Source of the DNA: Polyangiales bacterium
GTDB lineage: Bacteria; Myxococcota_A; Polyangia; Polyangiales; JADJQN01
DNA length: 64,000 bases
Reading direction: 5' to 3'
Assembly: GCA_964202905.1 (NCBI GenBank)
Contig: CAXNJO010000011.1
Location: forward strand, 32,001-96,000
This document shows positions 6,624 to 24,151 of the stretch, one piece after another; within the stretch, counting starts at the first letter, position 1, and each line of letters opens with the position of its first letter. Position numbers and translations under genes: made by a program. The notes under the pieces were generated by a model. It worked only from the letters and a program-made list of their open reading frames with translations. It was not told the origin of the DNA and made no database searches.

Positions 6624-9215
<2,592 letters not shown>

Positions 9216-15315: not shown

Positions 15316-16674
15316 ATGTCCCGGAGACCCACCGTGCGGCAGGTCCGCGCCGCCGGAACCCTCGTCCTCGCCGCCGCGATCGCGTCGGGCGGGTTGGCGC
15401 TCGCGACCGCGGACGGTCAGGCCCGGACGGCACCCGCCGTGCGCGCGCGCTCCGCGGCGCCGGTCGTGGCGCCGCCGCCGCGCGTCGTCGAGGGGCGCAT
15501 CCCGCGCGAGCTGCTCGACGGGCTCGACCCGCTCGCGCACCGTGCCGCCGCGGACGACGTCGAGGGCGATGCGCGCGTCGCGTCGCTCGAGGGAGGGCGC
15601 CGCGCGATCCTCACGATCGAGCCGGGTTTGCAGGCGTTCGTGGCCCAGACACTCGAGTCCTACGCGGTGCCGTATGCGGCCCTCGTCGCGATGGACCCGG
15701 CGAGCGGGCGCGTGCTCGCGTACGTGAGCCACTCGTCCGCGAACCCCGACGCCGGCGACCTCGTGCTCGACCCGACGCCGCCCGCGGCCTCCGTCTTCAA
15801 GGTCATCACCGGCGCCGCGCTGGTCGATGCGGGGCGGCCCGCGAGCACGCGCGTCTGCTACGGGGGCGGCGCGAGCCGGCTCCACACCTCCGATCTCGAC
15901 GACACCCCGGGCCGCGACACGCAGTGCGCGACGCTCGGCGAGGCCATGGGCGGCAGCATCAACGCGGTCTTCGCCAAGCTCGCCGATCGGTCGCTCGAGC
16001 CGCCGACGCTCGAGCGCTACGCCTCGGCCTTCGGCTTCGGGCACGCGCTGCCCTTCGACGTGCCGACGCGCCCGAGCCCCTCGGAGGTCCCGACGGAGCG
16101 CCTCGAGTTCGCGCGCACGGCCGCCGGGTTCTGGCACATGCACATGTCGCCGCTCCACGCCGCGCTGATCGCATCGACGGTGGCGAACGGCGGAGAGATG
16201 CCGCGCGCGATCCTCGTCGACCGCGTGATCGACGCGCAGGGGGCGACCCTCGCGCGGGCGCGCCCGGAGCCGTTCCGCCGCGTGATCTCGGTAGAGACGG
16301 CGCGGGCCGTGAACGGGATGATGCGGAACACGGTGTCCCAAGGCACTGCACGCCGTACTTTCCATGATCCGGCCGGGGTGCCCTTCCTCCCCGGCATGGA
16401 GATCGCCGGCAAGACGGGCACGCTGAGCGGAGAGAACCCCTACCGCGGCTACACGTGGTGGGTCGGCTTCGCGCCCGCGAACCGCCCCACGATCGCCGTC
16501 GCCGCGCTCGTCGTGAACACGCCGATGTGGCGCATCAAGGCGAGCTTCGTCGCGCGCGAGGCGCTCCGCTACCACCTCGTGCAGGCGCCGCACGAGCGCG
16601 CCGAGGCGCAGCGGCGCGCGGCCCGCCAGCAGGCGGCCGACGACGTCGCGGCGACGCCCGCTCCGCCGCGTTGA
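15316..16674 (+). CDS. Penicillin-binding protein, transpeptidase domain
   Basis: N-terminal signal/anchor, SxxK (SVFK), SxN (SIN) and KTG (GKTGT). Confidence 0.88.
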   Translation: MSRRPTVRQVRAAGTLVLAAAIASGGLALATADGQARTAPAVRARSAAPVVAPPPRVVEGRIPRELLDGLDPLAHRAAADDVEGDARVASLEGGRRAILTIEPGLQAFVAQTLESYAVPYAALVAMDPASGRVLAYVSHSSANPDAGDLVLDPTPPAASVFKVITGAALVDAGRPASTRVCYGGGASRLHTSDLDDTPGRDTQCATLGEAMGGSINAVFAKLADRSLEPPTLERYASAFGFGHALPFDVPTRPSPSEVPTERLEFARTAAGFWHMHMSPLHAALIASTVANGGEMPRAILVDRVIDAQGATLARARPEPFRRVISVETARAVNGMMRNTVSQGTARRTFHDPAGVPFLPGMEIAGKTGTLSGENPYRGYTWWVGFAPANRPTIAVAALVVNTPMWRIKASFVAREALRYHLVQAPHERAEAQRRAARQQAADDVAATPAPPR

Positions 16675-16819
16675 CGGCGCAGCGCGGCGCCCCGGCGCTG
16701 CGCGGCTCGAGCGCGCGGCGCGCGGTCGTCGGTGGCCCTGCGCGGGACTCGTCGGCGCCCAGCGGCTTGTCCGCGCGGCGCCGTGCGTGCCACGGTGGGG
16801 CCGTGCTTGGGTCGGGCGC

Positions 16820-17305
16820 ATGGCGGGTGCGGACCCCGGGGAGGCGCGTCGCGTGCGCGTGGCCGCGTCGCTGACGGCGTTGTGGATCTGGGTGCTCGGC
16901 GCCGAGGTCGCGCCGCACGTGCACCTCGCGCTCCACGCCTCGCTCGCGCCGCACACGCACGCGGCGTCGGTCGAGGCGCGCGCGGCGGGGGGCGCCGCCG
17001 CCGGCCGTTGTCACGACGAGGGCGGGGGCGCGCACTGTCACCGTGTGCGGCGGGCATCGACGCGCGGGTGGGATCGCCCCGCGGCGCGAGGCGAAGCGCT
17101 GCGCGCCGCCGACCCCGCGTACGGCGACGGGGCCCACGGCGCGGGCGCGCTCGCCCATCGGCAGGCGGCGTTCCTTCGGCCTGCGTCCGCTGCGGCGCCC
17201 CTCGTCGAGGCCCCCTTCGTCGCGCTCGCCGCCCGGGCGTACCCCGCGTCCCACCGCACCTACGGAATCCCCCGCGCGCCCGCGATGCGCGGACCCCCGG
17301 CCTGA
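16820..17305 (+). CDS. His-rich leader protein with a signal-like N-terminus and C-terminal RGPP motif (DUF2946/CruR-like uORF candidate)
   Basis: Hydrophobic segment VAASLTALWIWVLGAEVAP, then HVHLALH, HTH, CHDEGGGAHCH and HGAGALAH. Ends MRGPPA-stop, about 96 nt before a TonB-dependent receptor. Confidence 0.7.
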   Translation: MAGADPGEARRVRVAASLTALWIWVLGAEVAPHVHLALHASLAPHTHAASVEARAAGGAAAGRCHDEGGGAHCHRVRRASTRGWDRPAARGEALRAADPAYGDGAHGAGALAHRQAAFLRPASAAAPLVEAPFVALAARAYPASHRTYGIPRAPAMRGPPA

Positions 17306-17323
17306 CGGCACCGCTCCGGTCCA

Positions 17324-17396
17324 CGGAGGCGCGCCCCCGCGGCGCGCGCCCTCCGAATCCGTCTCGAGGTCAAGCGCCCGTTGCAGGGCGCAGGAG
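17324..17396 (+). promoter_or_regulatory. Structured intergenic leader: two hairpins followed by the AGGAG ribosome-binding site of the TonB-dependent receptor
   Basis: CGGAGGCGCGC (17324-17334) pairs with GCGCGC-C-CTCCG (17344-17355). The GCGCCC/GGGCGC stem at 17374-17391 abuts AGGAG at 17392-17396. GTG start at 17402. Confidence 0.45.
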
Positions 17397-17401
17397 CCGC
17401 C

Positions 17402-19684
17402 GTGCGCGCTCGCTCATCGCTCGCCCTCGCGTGGTCGGGGGCCTTGCTCGTCGCTTCGTGCGCGCTGCGCGCACGCGCCCAGGAGCCTGCGTCGCGTTCA
17501 CGCGGGGGAGGGGGCGGTGCGCCCGACGCGCCCGCCGTCACGGCAGCCGCGCAGACCGAAGGCGCGCCCGGTGAGGGCCCACCGCGCACGTCGGCGGCCT
17601 CGCCCGACGCGGCGACGCCGGTCTTCGGTGCGCGCGCGCGCGCGTCGCGGGGTTCGGCCGACCTCGCGGCGAGCAGCGACACCGACCTCGCACTCGCGCG
17701 TCTCCACGACGTCCCCCGCGCCCGGGCCGAGGAGCTCCTCACGCTCGCGCCGGGCGTGCTCCTCGGCAACCACGGCGGTGACGGACACGCGAGCACCTTG
17801 TTTTTTCGGGGCTTCGACGCCGGCGAGGGCCAGGACGTCGAGATGACGGTCGATGGCGTGCCGTTCAACGACCCGTCGAACGCGCACGGGCACGGCTACG
17901 CGGACGCGGGATTTCTCATCCCCGAGTTGGTCGAGCGCGTGCGCGTCGTCGAGGGCCCTTTCGACGCGCGGCAGGGCGACTTCGCGCTCGCCGGGAGCGC
18001 CGACTACACGCTCGGGCTCGCCGAGCGCGGGGCCCGCGCGAAGGTCGAGCTCGGGACGTACGGGCACCAGCGGTTGTTGCTCTCCTGGGGGCCCGAGGCC
18101 GCGTCGCGCCATACGTTCGTCGGTGTCGCGCTCGCGCGGGGCGAGGGCTTCGGTCCGAGCCGCGCGTCCACCGCCGCGACCGCGCTCGCGCAGCTCGAGG
18201 TGCCGCTCGGTCATGGTCTCCGCGGGGCGCTCTTCGCGACGGGGCACGTCGCGGACTTCGCCTCCGCGGGCGTCGTGCGTCTCGACGACGTCGCAGCCGG
18301 GCGCCTCGCGTGTCCGGCCGGTACGGAGCCGTTCTACTGCGTCGCGGATCCGTCGCAGGGCGGGGCGAGCGCGCGGACGTCGATCGGGGCCCGCGCCGCG
18401 TGGCAGCGGGGCGCGGCCCACCTCGAGCACGCCGTGTGGATCGTCGCGCGGCGTCTCCGTCTCCGCGAGAACTTCACGGGTCAGCTGCTCGACGCGCGCG
18501 GCGACGGACTCGACGCGCTCTACGACACGACGACGATCGGCGCGCGGGGCCGCTACCGCTTCGCGCGTCGCGTCCTCGGACGCAGGCAGGCGCTCGAGCT
18601 CGGCTTCCTCGCGCGGCGCACCGCGGGCGTGACGCGGCAGGACCGCCTGCGCAGCGACGGCGGCGCGCCGTACGCGACCGTGTTCGACGACACGATCGCG
18701 CTGACGAACGTGGGCGCCTGGGCCGCGATCACGCTGCGACCGCTCTCGTGGATCGCGCTGCGTGGCGGGCTCCGCGCGGAGGCGTTCGGCTTCGCGGTCG
18801 AGCGGCGCGGGTTGCCGATGCTCGATCGCGACGGCGCGCGCCTCGGCCTCGAGCGCGTGGACGCGCTGGGGATCGCGATCGCGCCGCGGGGCTCGGTGAC
18901 GCTGCGCCTCGCGCGCGGGCTCGCGTGGACCACGAGCGCCGGCGTCGGCACACGCAGCACCGACGCGCAGGCGCTGTCCGACGGCGAGCGCGCGCCCTTC
19001 GCGCAGGCGACCGCTGCGGAGACGGGGCTCGCCCTCGAGGCCGGTGCGCCGCGCCGTGTGGCGCTCGATCTGCGGGCGGCGTTGTTCGCGACCCGCGTCA
19101 CGCGCGATTTCGTCTTCGACGCCGAGCGCGGGCGCAACAGCGATGTCGGCCCTTCGAGCCGCTTCGGCGCGCTGCTCGCCGCGCAGCTGCGCGCGGGTCG
19201 CTGGCTCGAGGCGCGCGTGAGCGGCGCGTGGACCGAGGCGCACCTCGTCTCCCCAGAAGCGGGCCCCTTCGCGCTCGCGGCCGGGCCGCGGCTGCCCTAC
19301 GTGCCGCGCTTCGTCGCGCGCGCCGACGTCGCCGCGCGTCGCAGCTGGCGGATCGCGGGGCAGACCGTGGAGTTCGGCGCGTCACTCGGCCTGACGGCGC
19401 TCGCCGCGCGGCCCCTGCCGCTCGGCACGTTCGGCGAGCCGTATGCGCTCGTCGATGCGGCGCTCCGCGCGCGCTGGCGGAGCGTCGAGCTCGCGGTCGT
19501 CGCGCGCAACGTGCTCGACGCGCGCTGGCGCGCCTTCGAACTCGCCTATCCGTCGCGCTTCGGCGACGGCCCCGCCTCGATGCTCCCCGCGACGCACATC
19601 GCGGCGGGGCCGCCGTTCACCGCGTTCGTTTCGCTCTCGGTCGCCGTGCCGACGGGCGCCGCCGACACCACGGAGATGCCATGA
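17402..19684 (+). CDS. TonB-dependent outer-membrane receptor, probable divalent metal transporter
   Basis: Signal peptide, plug motifs FFRGFDAGEG, VDGVPFN and ELVERVRVVEGP, His-rich plug (NHGGDGH, NAHGHGYAD), and a beta-barrel ending with RNVLD and GPPFT. Confidence 0.9.
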   Translation: MRARSSLALAWSGALLVASCALRARAQEPASRSRGGGGGAPDAPAVTAAAQTEGAPGEGPPRTSAASPDAATPVFGARARASRGSADLAASSDTDLALARLHDVPRARAEELLTLAPGVLLGNHGGDGHASTLFFRGFDAGEGQDVEMTVDGVPFNDPSNAHGHGYADAGFLIPELVERVRVVEGPFDARQGDFALAGSADYTLGLAERGARAKVELGTYGHQRLLLSWGPEAASRHTFVGVALARGEGFGPSRASTAATALAQLEVPLGHGLRGALFATGHVADFASAGVVRLDDVAAGRLACPAGTEPFYCVADPSQGGASARTSIGARAAWQRGAAHLEHAVWIVARRLRLRENFTGQLLDARGDGLDALYDTTTIGARGRYRFARRVLGRRQALELGFLARRTAGVTRQDRLRSDGGAPYATVFDDTIALTNVGAWAAITLRPLSWIALRGGLRAEAFGFAVERRGLPMLDRDGARLGLERVDALGIAIAPRGSVTLRLARGLAWTTSAGVGTRSTDAQALSDGERAPFAQATAAETGLALEAGAPRRVALDLRAALFATRVTRDFVFDAERGRNSDVGPSSRFGALLAAQLRAGRWLEARVSGAWTEAHLVSPEAGPFALAAGPRLPYVPRFVARADVAARRSWRIAGQTVEFGASLGLTALAARPLPLGTFGEPYALVDAALRARWRSVELAVVARNVLDARWRAFELAYPSRFGDGPASMLPATHIAAGPPFTAFVSLSVAVPTGAADTTEMP

Positions 19685-20493
19685 ACATCGAAGACAATGA
19701 CTGCATTCACAGGCGCGCATGCGCAGCGCCTTTGGCCGCGCTCGCCGCGTTCGCGTTCGTCGTCGCGTCGGCCTGCGAGAGTGGCACCGAGGGCCGCGCG
19801 GTGCGCTTCGGGCTCACGCTCCGATCGGTGGCCGAGTCGGGCTTCACCGCGGCGGGTGTCTTCGACACGGACACCGGCTGGCGCGTCGTGCTCGACGAGG
19901 CCCGCGTCGCGCTCGGCCCCGTCTACCTCTACGCCGAGCCCGGCGCGACGGCGGCACGTGCGCTGGAGCGGCTCCTCGTCCCGGTCGCCCGCGCGCACGG
20001 CGGCACCGACCCCTCCGCGGGTCGCGTCGTGCGGGGCGAGCATCTCGGCGTCGTCGTGCTCGACGCGCTCGCGACCGAGCCCGTCCGGATCGCGTCCGTC
20101 GCGGGTCGCGCGGGTCGCGCCGTGAGCCTGCGCGTCGATCTCCCAGGCCCTGCGGCCGATGTGGACGGCGTCCTGCGGGGCCACCACGCGTGGATCCGCG
20201 GCACCGCGACGCGCGGCGCAGCGTCGATCGCCTTCGCGGGCGGGCTCGACATCCCCGACGACGGCCTCGCGCAGCACGTCGATGGCGTCCCGCTCGACGG
20301 CTTCGTCGACGACGGCGTCACCGTCGCGCTCGACGTGCATGTGCGCGCCTGGCTCGCGGCCGCGCACTTCGATCGCCTGCCCGCGCCCGGTCCCGATGGG
20401 GTGTGCGCCATCCCCGCCGAGACGCAGGTGCGCACGGCCTGGTACCTCGGCGCGCGCAGCCTCGCCGCCTTCTCCGCGTCGATCACGCCCTGA
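19681..20493 (+). CDS. Uncharacterised lipoprotein associated with the TonB receptor
   Basis: ATGA overlap with the receptor stop, lipobox VASAC, beta-rich body, AHGG and GHH motifs. Confidence 0.75.
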   Translation: MNIEDNDCIHRRACAAPLAALAAFAFVVASACESGTEGRAVRFGLTLRSVAESGFTAAGVFDTDTGWRVVLDEARVALGPVYLYAEPGATAARALERLLVPVARAHGGTDPSAGRVVRGEHLGVVVLDALATEPVRIASVAGRAGRAVSLRVDLPGPAADVDGVLRGHHAWIRGTATRGAASIAFAGGLDIPDDGLAQHVDGVPLDGFVDDGVTVALDVHVRAWLAAAHFDRLPAPGPDGVCAIPAETQVRTAWYLGARSLAAFSASITP

Positions 20494-20538
20494 TCGCGCC
20501 GCATGTCTCGAAACAATCACCATCTTGAAAGATATCCA

Positions 20539-21446
20539 ATGATGAGACGTCTCTTCGTCCTGCTCGCGCTGCTCCTCACCTTCCCGCTGTCCGCCTGCAC
20601 GGGCGCCGACGACGGCGGCACCGGTACGCTCCGGGTGACGCTCTCCGGCGAGCAGGGCGCGAAGGTCGGCTATCCGTTCACGGTCGACGGCGAGACCGTC
20701 GGCTTCGTCGACGGCTGGTCGCTGCGCTTCGACGAGGTCGTCGTCGGCGTCGCCGCGCTCCGTCTCCGTGCAGGCGACGGCGACGAGGCCCCGCTCGACG
20801 TCGACCACGTCGTCGCGTCCCTCCGCGTCGACGACCCCGTCGCGTGGGAGCGTGAAGGCGTTCCGGCGCGGCGCTGGGATCGCGTCGGGTACGCGCTCCG
20901 GGCCCCGTCGCCCGGGGCGCGCATCCTCGGCGGCGTCCCCGAGGCGACGCTCGCGCGGATGCGCGCGCGCTCGGCGCGGCGCTCTACGTCAGGGGCAGCG
21001 CGACCTCTGCCGCGGGGCGCGCGATCGCCTTCGAGCTCCACCTCCCGGATGCGATCCTCGCGGACCGCTGCGAGAGCGGGCGCGACGGCACGCCTGGCGT
21101 CGTCGTCACGCCGGGCGCGCGCACGGACGTCGCGTTGACGGTGCACCTCGACCACCTCTTCTTCGACTCGCTCGTCGTCGAGCGCGCCGAGATGCGCCTC
21201 GAGGCGCTCGCCGCGGCCGCCGACGCCGACGGGCGCGTCACGCTCGACGCGCTCTCCGCGCAGCCGCTCGCGGACCTGCGCGACACGGCCGGCGCGCCGC
21301 TGCGCGACGCCTCCGGCGCACCGGTGCTCTACGATCCGGGCTCGGCGCCTCTCGCGGCCCCGACGCTGCGCGAGTTCGTCCGCGCGAGCCTCTCGACCGT
21401 CGGGCACCTCGATGGCGAGGGCCACTGCGCGTACGCGCGCGAGTGA
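20539..21446 (+). CDS. Uncharacterised His/Cys-motif lipoprotein; apparent frameshift in a (GC)n run at about 20961-20970
   Basis: Lipobox LSAC. Removing one GC from ATGCGCGCGCGCTC gives MRALGAALYVRG..., which continues to TVHLDHLFFD and the C-terminal GHLDGEGHC. Confidence 0.75.
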
Positions 21447-21497
21447 GGAGCGTGCAGGGACAGAGTATGTCCCACCCTCGGCGTCGCCCGGGCGGGA

Positions 21498-22544
21498 TCA
21501 GCCGAGGGCCGCGCGCGCCGTCTCGACGCTGACGGCGCCGCTCTTCACGAGGTCCTTCAGGGCCATCTCGAAGGTCTGCATCCCGTAGGGGTGCGTCCCG
21601 CGCTCCATCACGTCCTTGAGCGGGACGTTGCCCTCGGGGCGCCGCAGCGACTCGCGCGCGGTCCCCGTCACGACGAGCACCTCGGCGGCGAGCACGAGCC
21701 CGTTTCCGTCGAGGCGCGGCAGCAGGCGCTGCGCGACGATTCCGCGCAGGTTGTCGGCGAAGCGCTCGCGCGTCTCGGACGTCGGTCGGCTGCCGTCGCC
21801 GGCGAGGGAAATGACGCGACCGATGGTCCGCGGCACGTCGGGCGTGTGCAGCGTCGAGAGCACGAGGTGGCCCGTCTCGGCGGACTTGAGGGCGATGTCC
21901 ATCGTCTCCTCGTCGCGGATCTCGCCGAGGAGGATGACGTCCGGGTCCTGCCGGAGCGCGGCGCGCAGCCCCGTCGCGAACGCCTCGGTGTCGATGCCGA
22001 TCTCGCGCTGCGAGATCGCGGCCAGCGAGTCCGTGTGGAGGAACTCGATCGGGTCCTCGATCGTGACGATGTGGATGCGCTGCGTCTGGTTGAGGTGCCC
22101 GACCATCGCCGCGAGCGTCGACGACTTGCCGTTGCCGGCGGCGCCGACGACGAGCACGAGCCCGCGCTCCATTTCGGCGAGGGCGCGCGCGACCGGGGGC
22201 GCGCCGAGCTCTTCGAAGGTGGGGATGCGCAGCGGGATCGAGCGCATCGCGACCGCGAGCGTGCCGCGCTGCCGGTACACGTTGACCCGGTACCGCCCGA
22301 TGTTGGGGACGCCGTACGCGGTGTCGTACTGCTGCATGTCGTCGAGCGTCCCGCGGAAGCGGGAGGCCGTGAGGACGTGCTCGGCGATGCGCAGCGTGTG
22401 ATCCGGCCGGAGTTTGTCGCCTTGCAGGTAGTGCAGCTCGCCGCCGATGCGGAAGGCCGGGGGCTGGCCGACCTTGAAGAGCACGTCGCTCGCGCGGTGC
22501 TGCTCGCCCTTCTGCAGCAGCGCGTGGAAGGTCGCTTCGTCCAT
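21498..22544 (-). CDS. PilT/PilU-family type IV pilus retraction ATPase paralog
   Basis: Walker A GAAGNGKSST, TIEDPIE, LRQDPDVILLGEIRD, ETGHLVLSTLH and GMQTFE. Lacks the AIRNLIRE motif. Confidence 0.92.
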   Translation of the reverse strand: MDEATFHALLQKGEQHRASDVLFKVGQPPAFRIGGELHYLQGDKLRPDHTLRIAEHVLTASRFRGTLDDMQQYDTAYGVPNIGRYRVNVYRQRGTLAVAMRSIPLRIPTFEELGAPPVARALAEMERGLVLVVGAAGNGKSSTLAAMVGHLNQTQRIHIVTIEDPIEFLHTDSLAAISQREIGIDTEAFATGLRAALRQDPDVILLGEIRDEETMDIALKSAETGHLVLSTLHTPDVPRTIGRVISLAGDGSRPTSETRERFADNLRGIVAQRLLPRLDGNGLVLAAEVLVVTGTARESLRRPEGNVPLKDVMERGTHPYGMQTFEMALKDLVKSGAVSVETARAALG

Positions 22545-23911: not shown

Positions 23912-24019
23912 GGTGTCTCCCCGGGCGTCGCACGCCCGCTCCGCGCCCAAGCAAAGCCGGGGCCGACCTCCGCGTCCACGGGACGACGGTGTTTTCCCCG
24001 TGCGGGAGCGGCGCACGAT

Positions 24020-24054
24020 GCAACGAAGTTGGCGTGAGTCCGCAACGATGTTGC
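24020..24054. promoter_or_regulatory. Tandem imperfect palindromes GCAAC-N3-GTTG, candidate operator
   Basis: GCAACGAAGTTGG at 24020 and GCAACGATGTTGC at 24042, 22 bp apart, in the divergent gyrA/lipoprotein intergenic region. Confidence 0.4.
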
Positions 24055-24151
24055 ATGTCGGCGGGGCGCCTCGGGCCGCATCCGGCCTCTTTGTTACGCG
24101 CGCGTGCGTGCGTGCGACGCCGTGGAGCCCGTGATAGCGTCGCCGCCGCCC

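Follow-up and report, generated by a model that had tools for sequence, protein, structure and literature searches.

We describe here a small conserved gene, found in the 64,000-nucleotide stretch of DNA analysed (the window), that by anatomy and conservation is a real leader of the arrest type as judged from its sequence, and that probably acts in cis as an arrest peptide sensing a divalent metal through histidines. The family to which it belongs in myxobacteria is probably a His-based metal switch. To our knowledge, copper is the only metal for which sensing by an arrest peptide has been demonstrated (CruR and CutF). With its six His, its constant spacer of 43 residues and natural variants in the hundreds, the family makes nascent-chain sensing of Zn, Ni or Co testable, as well as the way in which a metal bound outside the tunnel would free an RGPP stall.

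A conserved His-rich leader before a receptor-lipoprotein cassette

The ORF had been picked out in an earlier note on this DNA, and translation and coordinates confirmed its extent, the terminal RGPPA plus stop, the gap of about 96 nt and the His/Cys clusters (Table 1). The 161-aa product ends in IPRAPAMRGPPA followed by the stop, the last codons being CGC GGA CCC CCG GCC TGA (17288-17305), and the receptor start is best placed at the GTG at 17402, behind AGGAG and 96 nt past the leader stop. Third-position GC of the ORF is 0.895, and only its own frame has a positive codon score (+25.9), the other five all scoring below zero. Since 26 of the 44,865 stop-to-stop ORFs of at least 60 aa in the whole genome, which has 73% GC, end in RGPP, a terminal RGPP alone proves little, and we took the leader ORF as real because of its conservation in homologues. 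Among the 4,674 script-called genes of this genome, RGPP is depleted (10 vs 99 for AGPP) and occurs near the C-terminus in only two, one of which is the leader. The signal-like hydrophobic N-terminus claimed earlier is present but only moderately hydrophobic, with a best 19-residue Kyte-Doolittle mean of 1.51 at residues 14-32; values of at least 1.6 were obtained for 114 of the best 150 of 315 homologues. An AlphaFold2 model of the leader (pTM 0.44) displayed a helix at residues 6-38, nothing else informative and no folded metal site.

Table 1. Features of the leader and of the downstream cassette (positions in the window)
Feature	Position	Strand	Evidence
Leader ORF, class A His-rich R[AG]PP leader, 161 aa	16820..17305	+	Translation, profile search, alignment, codon score
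Hydrophobic segment, residues 14-32, putative signal or signal-anchor; conserved W24, G27, E29, P32	16859..16915	+	Hydropathy, column counts
First His cluster, H35-x3-H39-x5-H45-x-H47	16922..16960	+	His in 143, 143, 142 and 142 of 144 aligned rows
Second His cluster, H106-G-x2-[SA]-L-x-H113	17135..17158	+	His in 143 and 144 of 144 rows; H113 43 residues before R157
RGPP putative arrest motif, R157-P160	17288..17299	+	R and both P invariant in the 144 aligned rows
Intergenic region, 96 nt, Shine-Dalgarno-like AGGAG at 17392-17396	17306..17401	+	Sequence
TonB-dependent receptor, His-rich plug motif NAHGHGYAD	17402..19684	+	Pfam Plug PF07715, E 3.6e-14
Lipoprotein-like protein 1, MbnP-like fold	19681..20493	+	Conserved Cys32; structure comparison
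Lipoprotein-like protein 2, reading frame interrupted near 20961 in the assembly	20539..21446	+	Homologues are single ORFs

A profile made from six sequences, seeded by the leaders upstream of the closest receptor homologues, matched 315 proteins at E <=0.001 in a search of 1.84 billion representatives, and we examined the best 150 matches, four of which are, or nearly are, seeds of the profile. An R[AG]PP end lying at most 17 residues from the C-terminus was present in 139 of these 150 (121 RGPP and 18 RAPP), and the remaining 11 comprised three RDPP, one RSPP and seven apparently cut or shifted sequences. The seven were left out of the alignment, which therefore had 144 rows (the window's protein plus 143 of the 150). 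Six His were present in 142-144 of these rows, and no Cys or Met was conserved. Thus, as to the clustered His/Cys described in the earlier note, the histidines stood but the cysteines did not: 44 of the best 150 homologues have no Cys at all, and CXXC, found in two of them, is absent from the window's leader. The spacer between H113 and R157 measured 41-44 residues in all 144 rows and 43 in 130, its sequence being poorly conserved; a profile could favour such equal spacing, yet a wide range (10-123 residues in the 144 rows) was tolerated in the often His-rich linker between the two His clusters (H47-H106). Across 35 leader loci the motif codons varied synonymously, which points to selection acting on the peptide.

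The fetched loci contained 66 distinct leaders, about seven of which had been found receptor-first. Fifty-five stood directly before the receptor family and seven before lipoprotein 1, while two of the other four had too little flank and two preceded something else. The terminal R[AG]PP, the His clusters and the position before the receptor were therefore kept across homologous loci in the conservation check that the earlier note had proposed. The leader protein matched no Pfam family at E up to 1 and no NCBIfam entry, and the clusters nearest to it in a protein atlas are unnamed and mostly from Myxococcota. One member of the family (L035:3056-3460, plus strand) ends in TGPP rather than R[AG]PP, and TGPP is one of the motifs given in the part of PMC10987492 that was available.

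A leader that monitors secretion or membrane insertion by SecM/ApdP-like pulling, with a secondary role for the His tract, would also combine a signal-like N-terminus with RGPP, as in ApdP and ApdA (PMC12992588), and the downstream genes do all encode exported proteins. However, the six His are nearly invariant, one cluster lies at a fixed distance from the motif and no sec or yidC gene was a downstream neighbour in the 62 loci classified out of 66, and we regard this explanation as unlikely. We give even less credit to the idea that the product is released into the periplasm as a His-rich metal chaperone serving the receptor, its Pro-rich tail being incidental. The mean of 14.9 His per homologue (best 150), the putative export signal and the variable, often His-rich linker are what such a protein might display, but it would need neither the fixed His-to-RGPP spacer nor a cis position directly upstream, and RGPP is kept in 139 of 150 homologues despite its depletion in the genes of the genome.

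Regarding the cassette, the receptor resembles solved structures only in the plug. Lipoprotein 1 was compared with MbnP 7l6g (Foldseek E 2.2e-4; VIA-align Z 9.4, rmsd 4.2, 193 aligned), and it lacks the WxW motif, which we take to be the copper-site motif of MbnP. The frame of lipoprotein 2 is broken near 20961, where a run of CG contains two additional nucleotides; since one low-depth contig in each of the runs X1 and X2 (one study) is without 2 nt at 20961, this frameshift is possibly an assembly error. At loci L131-L134 (genomes G011, G034, G118 and G132) it is the lipoprotein pair that follows the leader, the receptor being transcribed in the opposite direction, and the L131 operon runs on into MbnP- and MbnH-like genes; these arrangements suggest that the target is the cassette and not always the receptor. 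A ZnuA-family gene was not found in this genome, despite its two receptor cassettes.

Known arrest peptides, proposed mechanism and output

CruR (Bp2923) of Bordetella pertussis, a DUF2946/PF11162 protein, acts through Rho and carries a CXXC-RAPP spacer of 45 residues that is functionally important (PMC9426467), and its arrest has been shown in vitro (PMC12992588). It has in common with the leader a C-terminal R[AG]PP a few residues before the stop, a metal motif at a fixed distance from the arrest motif (45 residues in CruR and 43 in the leader) and a long intergenic gap followed by a TonB receptor. Its export signal has a putative counterpart in the moderately hydrophobic N-terminal segment of the leader. 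In contrast to CruR, the leader has six His in two clusters and no CXXC, does not match DUF2946, belongs to a genome in which rho was not found and stands in a context linked to Zn or Ni/Co and not to Cu. The lack of a match when the leader was checked against the DUF2946 profile is as expected of a separate His-based analogue, and the profile found no member elsewhere in this genome. The idea that the leader is a CruR analogue with His in place of CXXC was thus upheld by the conservation of R[AG]PP, His, position and absent CXXC, but it breaks at the output, rho not having been found. By its predicted features, the leader is CruR-like in anatomy, yet profile, ligand and likely output all place it outside DUF2946.

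CutF of Rhodobacter capsulatus, according to those parts of PMC9973294 and bioRxiv 10.1101/2025.02.05.636593 that were available, carries CxxxC; Cu causes it to stall, and a detoxifying oxidase is thereby switched on via a stem-loop at the ribosome-binding site. On that account both CutF and the leader would be exported leaders with a metal motif, a Pro-rich tail, cis action and an output at the level of translation (predicted for the leader), but we found no conserved equivalent of the stem-loop at class A loci. His-only CutF-like clusters (14 and 17 among those compared) precede HupE/UreJ genes (PMC9973294), whereas the leader precedes TonB receptors. Moreover, R[AG]PP leaders before TonB receptors have been reported across Gram-negatives as a 'TonB-related' class (PMC12992588), which shares with the leader the small secretory ORF, the terminal motif and the TonB receptor downstream. 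The source table of that work holds at least one protein with the motifs and the 43-residue spacer of our family (MCB9656136.1) and at least nine RAPP leaders before 'zinc-regulated' receptors, whereas its main text does not describe the leader family, its His ligands or its spacer and never mentions zinc, nickel or cobalt. A RAPP-like core after a localisation signal, as in the leader, is also found in ApcA/ApdA/ApdP and uA_RQH_Myxococcales, which in the available part of PMC10987492 precede sec/yidC genes, monitor protein localisation and have no metal motif. The same part of that paper includes an in vitro test of a Myxococcales QAPP arrest peptide before secA; the earlier note knew of no characterised example in Myxococcota. 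The novelty is hence below what was first assumed: R[AG]PP leaders before TonB receptors, one member of the family and His-only CutF-like clusters are already in print.

We propose that the ribosome would stall at RGPP, which of the arrest cores tested in four contexts proved the most robust (PMC12992588). At the stall, and given the observed spacing, H106/H113 would be 43-50 residues back and just out of the exit tunnel, and the first His cluster would lie close beside the membrane helix, carried by a linker whose length is not constrained. Metal may then join the two His clusters, so that a folding or translocation force would free the stall, as in the model for CruR. With scarce metal the stalled ribosome would keep the receptor-lipoprotein cassette on, and with metal present the cassette would be off, a direction that we infer from the target being an importer.

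As regards the output step, we favour, by exclusion, an effect on receptor initiation or on mRNA decay over Rho-dependent termination. In this genome (94.5% complete) rho was not found by family search or by direct six-frame search, nor was it found in any of the 12 same-order genomes of a leader-focused set (this genome plus 11 others), which overall had rho in 15 of 38 genomes. A CruR-type Rho-dependent output is thus unlikely in this host, where, with Rho apparently lacking, an output step other than that of CruR is to be expected. In the order as a whole rho was present in only nine of 81 genomes and not found in 72, single-contig genomes included. This is far wider than the one species among the 12 Myxococcota that a published survey lists without Rho, in the part of PMC11347177 available. 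A promoter/terminator scan gave nothing, with no terminator-like site in the leader-receptor gap; the fold of the 96 nt was no more stable than shuffles (z -0.11) and Rfam, run on 16000-22000, gave no match, its one sub-threshold match in that range being taken as chance. A rut site before the motif was considered and discarded, as the C-over-G skew there is accounted for by Pro/Arg/Ala codons. The cost of opening the Shine-Dalgarno site at the window's locus was 23.3 vs 21.4 kcal/mol, the site being paired in both states, and a gain of at least 2 was seen in only six of 21 loci. Likewise, a family-wide hairpin between Shine-Dalgarno and footprint, found in 16 of 35 loci, was rejected because it did not beat the controls (pairing 0.34 native vs 0.31 swapped, p 0.39); all these estimates come from equilibrium folding of very GC-rich RNA, which is unreliable.

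Three control modules before one receptor family

Other homologues of the receptor are preceded by a sister leader (class B) that ends in [AS]P[KAS]xSPP (APKxSPP type) and has no Arg, the residue reported as irreplaceable in RAPP cores. Class B was found in 73 of 151 genomes of the class, its loci including L007:896-1315(+), L008, L010-L015 and L101-L130, and it is related to class A over the helix-His segment only (probability 66.9, 38 columns). The spacer from its Cys to the first Pro of the motif was 44-48 residues (21 rows). ZnuA/ABC-3 operons and CobW-family genes can likewise have a class B leader at their head. If its stalling is true, the APKxSPP motif would widen the known arrest code; a literature search on APKxSPP variants returned plant papers only. 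At L150:12599-13417(+), a tandem pair of APKxSPP leaders precedes the gene of a CobW-family GTPase, and two FUR genes in the neighbourhood have box-like sites.

A third type of control is suggested by a leaderless paralogous receptor-lipoprotein cassette (L144) in the same genome as the window (C12:44862-49849), followed by FUR, CobW_C and WD40 genes. A FUR-family protein is encoded at C12:44862-45164. Upstream of this paralogue (C12:49833), TTGCAACccgGTTGCAA agrees at every position with the box that has been predicted as the Zur site of Desulfovibrio (PMC545781, in the part available); the box was scored against that prediction, and its assignment to Zur is itself predicted only. We scored 63 receptor loci, less two duplicates and six with short flanks, with a cut-off of two mismatches or fewer, and the box preceded 17 of 27 leaderless receptors, two of 28 leader-bearing ones (none of seven class A) and none of 55 inside-gene controls, counts in which kin are not independent. 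The box preceded none of the 66 class A leaders, and near the window's leader no Zur-like box was found, the best match having six mismatches. In addition, it precedes four of eight ZigA-type genes vs none of four other CobW-family genes. Within this genome four of the five perfect boxes fall inside called ORFs, and a genome-wide box search defined no regulon. A literature search on Myxococcus, Zur and TonB gave nothing relevant among the papers listed, and no paper was found for the plug motifs of the receptor.

On a quick receptor tree the three control states interleave, the starred branches forcing at least 4, 6 and 6 changes. Class B was also present in 13 of 26 class A genomes and a boxed paralogue in three more, and class B was in none of 10 box-bearing genomes, only 26 candidates having been scored per genome for these co-occurrence counts. 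The coexistence of classes A and B and the absence of class B from boxed genomes would fit a class B that replaces Zur and a class A that reads another cue. We put forward, only tentatively, that in Polyangia a Zur-type operator, the six-His RGPP leader and the Arg-less His/Cys APKxSPP leader are interchangeable before one receptor family, and that zinc is sensed by one or both of the leaders, as arrest peptides that take the place of a transcription factor and work without Rho. The swap with a Zur-like operator provides a natural control pair within one genome.

Candidate metals

On present sequence evidence zinc is the leading candidate for the metal read at the window's locus, at somewhat short of an even chance; nickel or cobalt is possible, and copper and any other metal are each improbable. 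In favour of zinc, the window's receptor falls in a 61-row clade with every box- and APKxSPP-controlled copy (FastTree), the box stands before leaderless receptors and ZigA-type genes and, as a perfect match, before the leaderless paralogue with its FUR and CobW_C neighbours, and this genome shows no clear Ni or Co sink. Against zinc, most class A-led receptors group with receptors near Ni/Co genes (see below), class A often shares a genome with class B or a boxed paralogue, Zn genes are rarely near class A cassettes, and most perfect boxes of this genome fall inside called ORFs. A literature search combining zinc with arrest peptide, DUF2946 or CruR found no zinc-sensing example among the papers listed.

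By the same arrest mechanism, class A might instead be a nickel/cobalt sensor, only the APKxSPP sister leader standing in for Zur, and to this we give roughly a one-in-three standing at most. The His-only ligand set and the published His-only CutF-like clusters before HupE/UreJ genes (PMC9973294) agree with it. So does the receptor tree, where 19 of 29 class A-led receptors group (FastTree, support 100) with five annotated plasmid proteobacterial receptors, of which three adjoin nikR, hoxN or both, a fourth lies close to a cob gene and the fifth has no metal gene next to it. It would also suit the finding that 16 or more of the 26 class A genomes contain a class B leader or a boxed paralogue as well, and that class B is in none of the 10 boxed ones. 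Nevertheless, the window's receptor is in the other clade, and a clear sink for Ni or Co was not found in this genome (94.5% complete), in which there was no NiFe hydrogenase, CobS or CbiC and a urease match spanned only 37 positions.

A copper sensor of the CruR kind with His ligands is improbable, as class A has no CXXC and conserves neither Cys nor Met. Its best arguments are the MbnP-like fold of lipoprotein 1, the MbnP/MbnH-like genes near four of 50 inspected loci, the multicopper-oxidase-like genes near four of the same 50, and the weak scores that 13 of the 144 family members reach with DUF2946 (best E 0.0021); lipoprotein 1, however, is without WxW, and a common fold demonstrates no function.

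Two further observations concern other parts of the window. Between a SPOR-like gene and gyrA, the interval 24019-24055 holds two weak matches to the Zur-like palindrome. The long membrane protein at 6624-9215, on the minus strand, is by eye like a membrane-bound pyrophosphatase.
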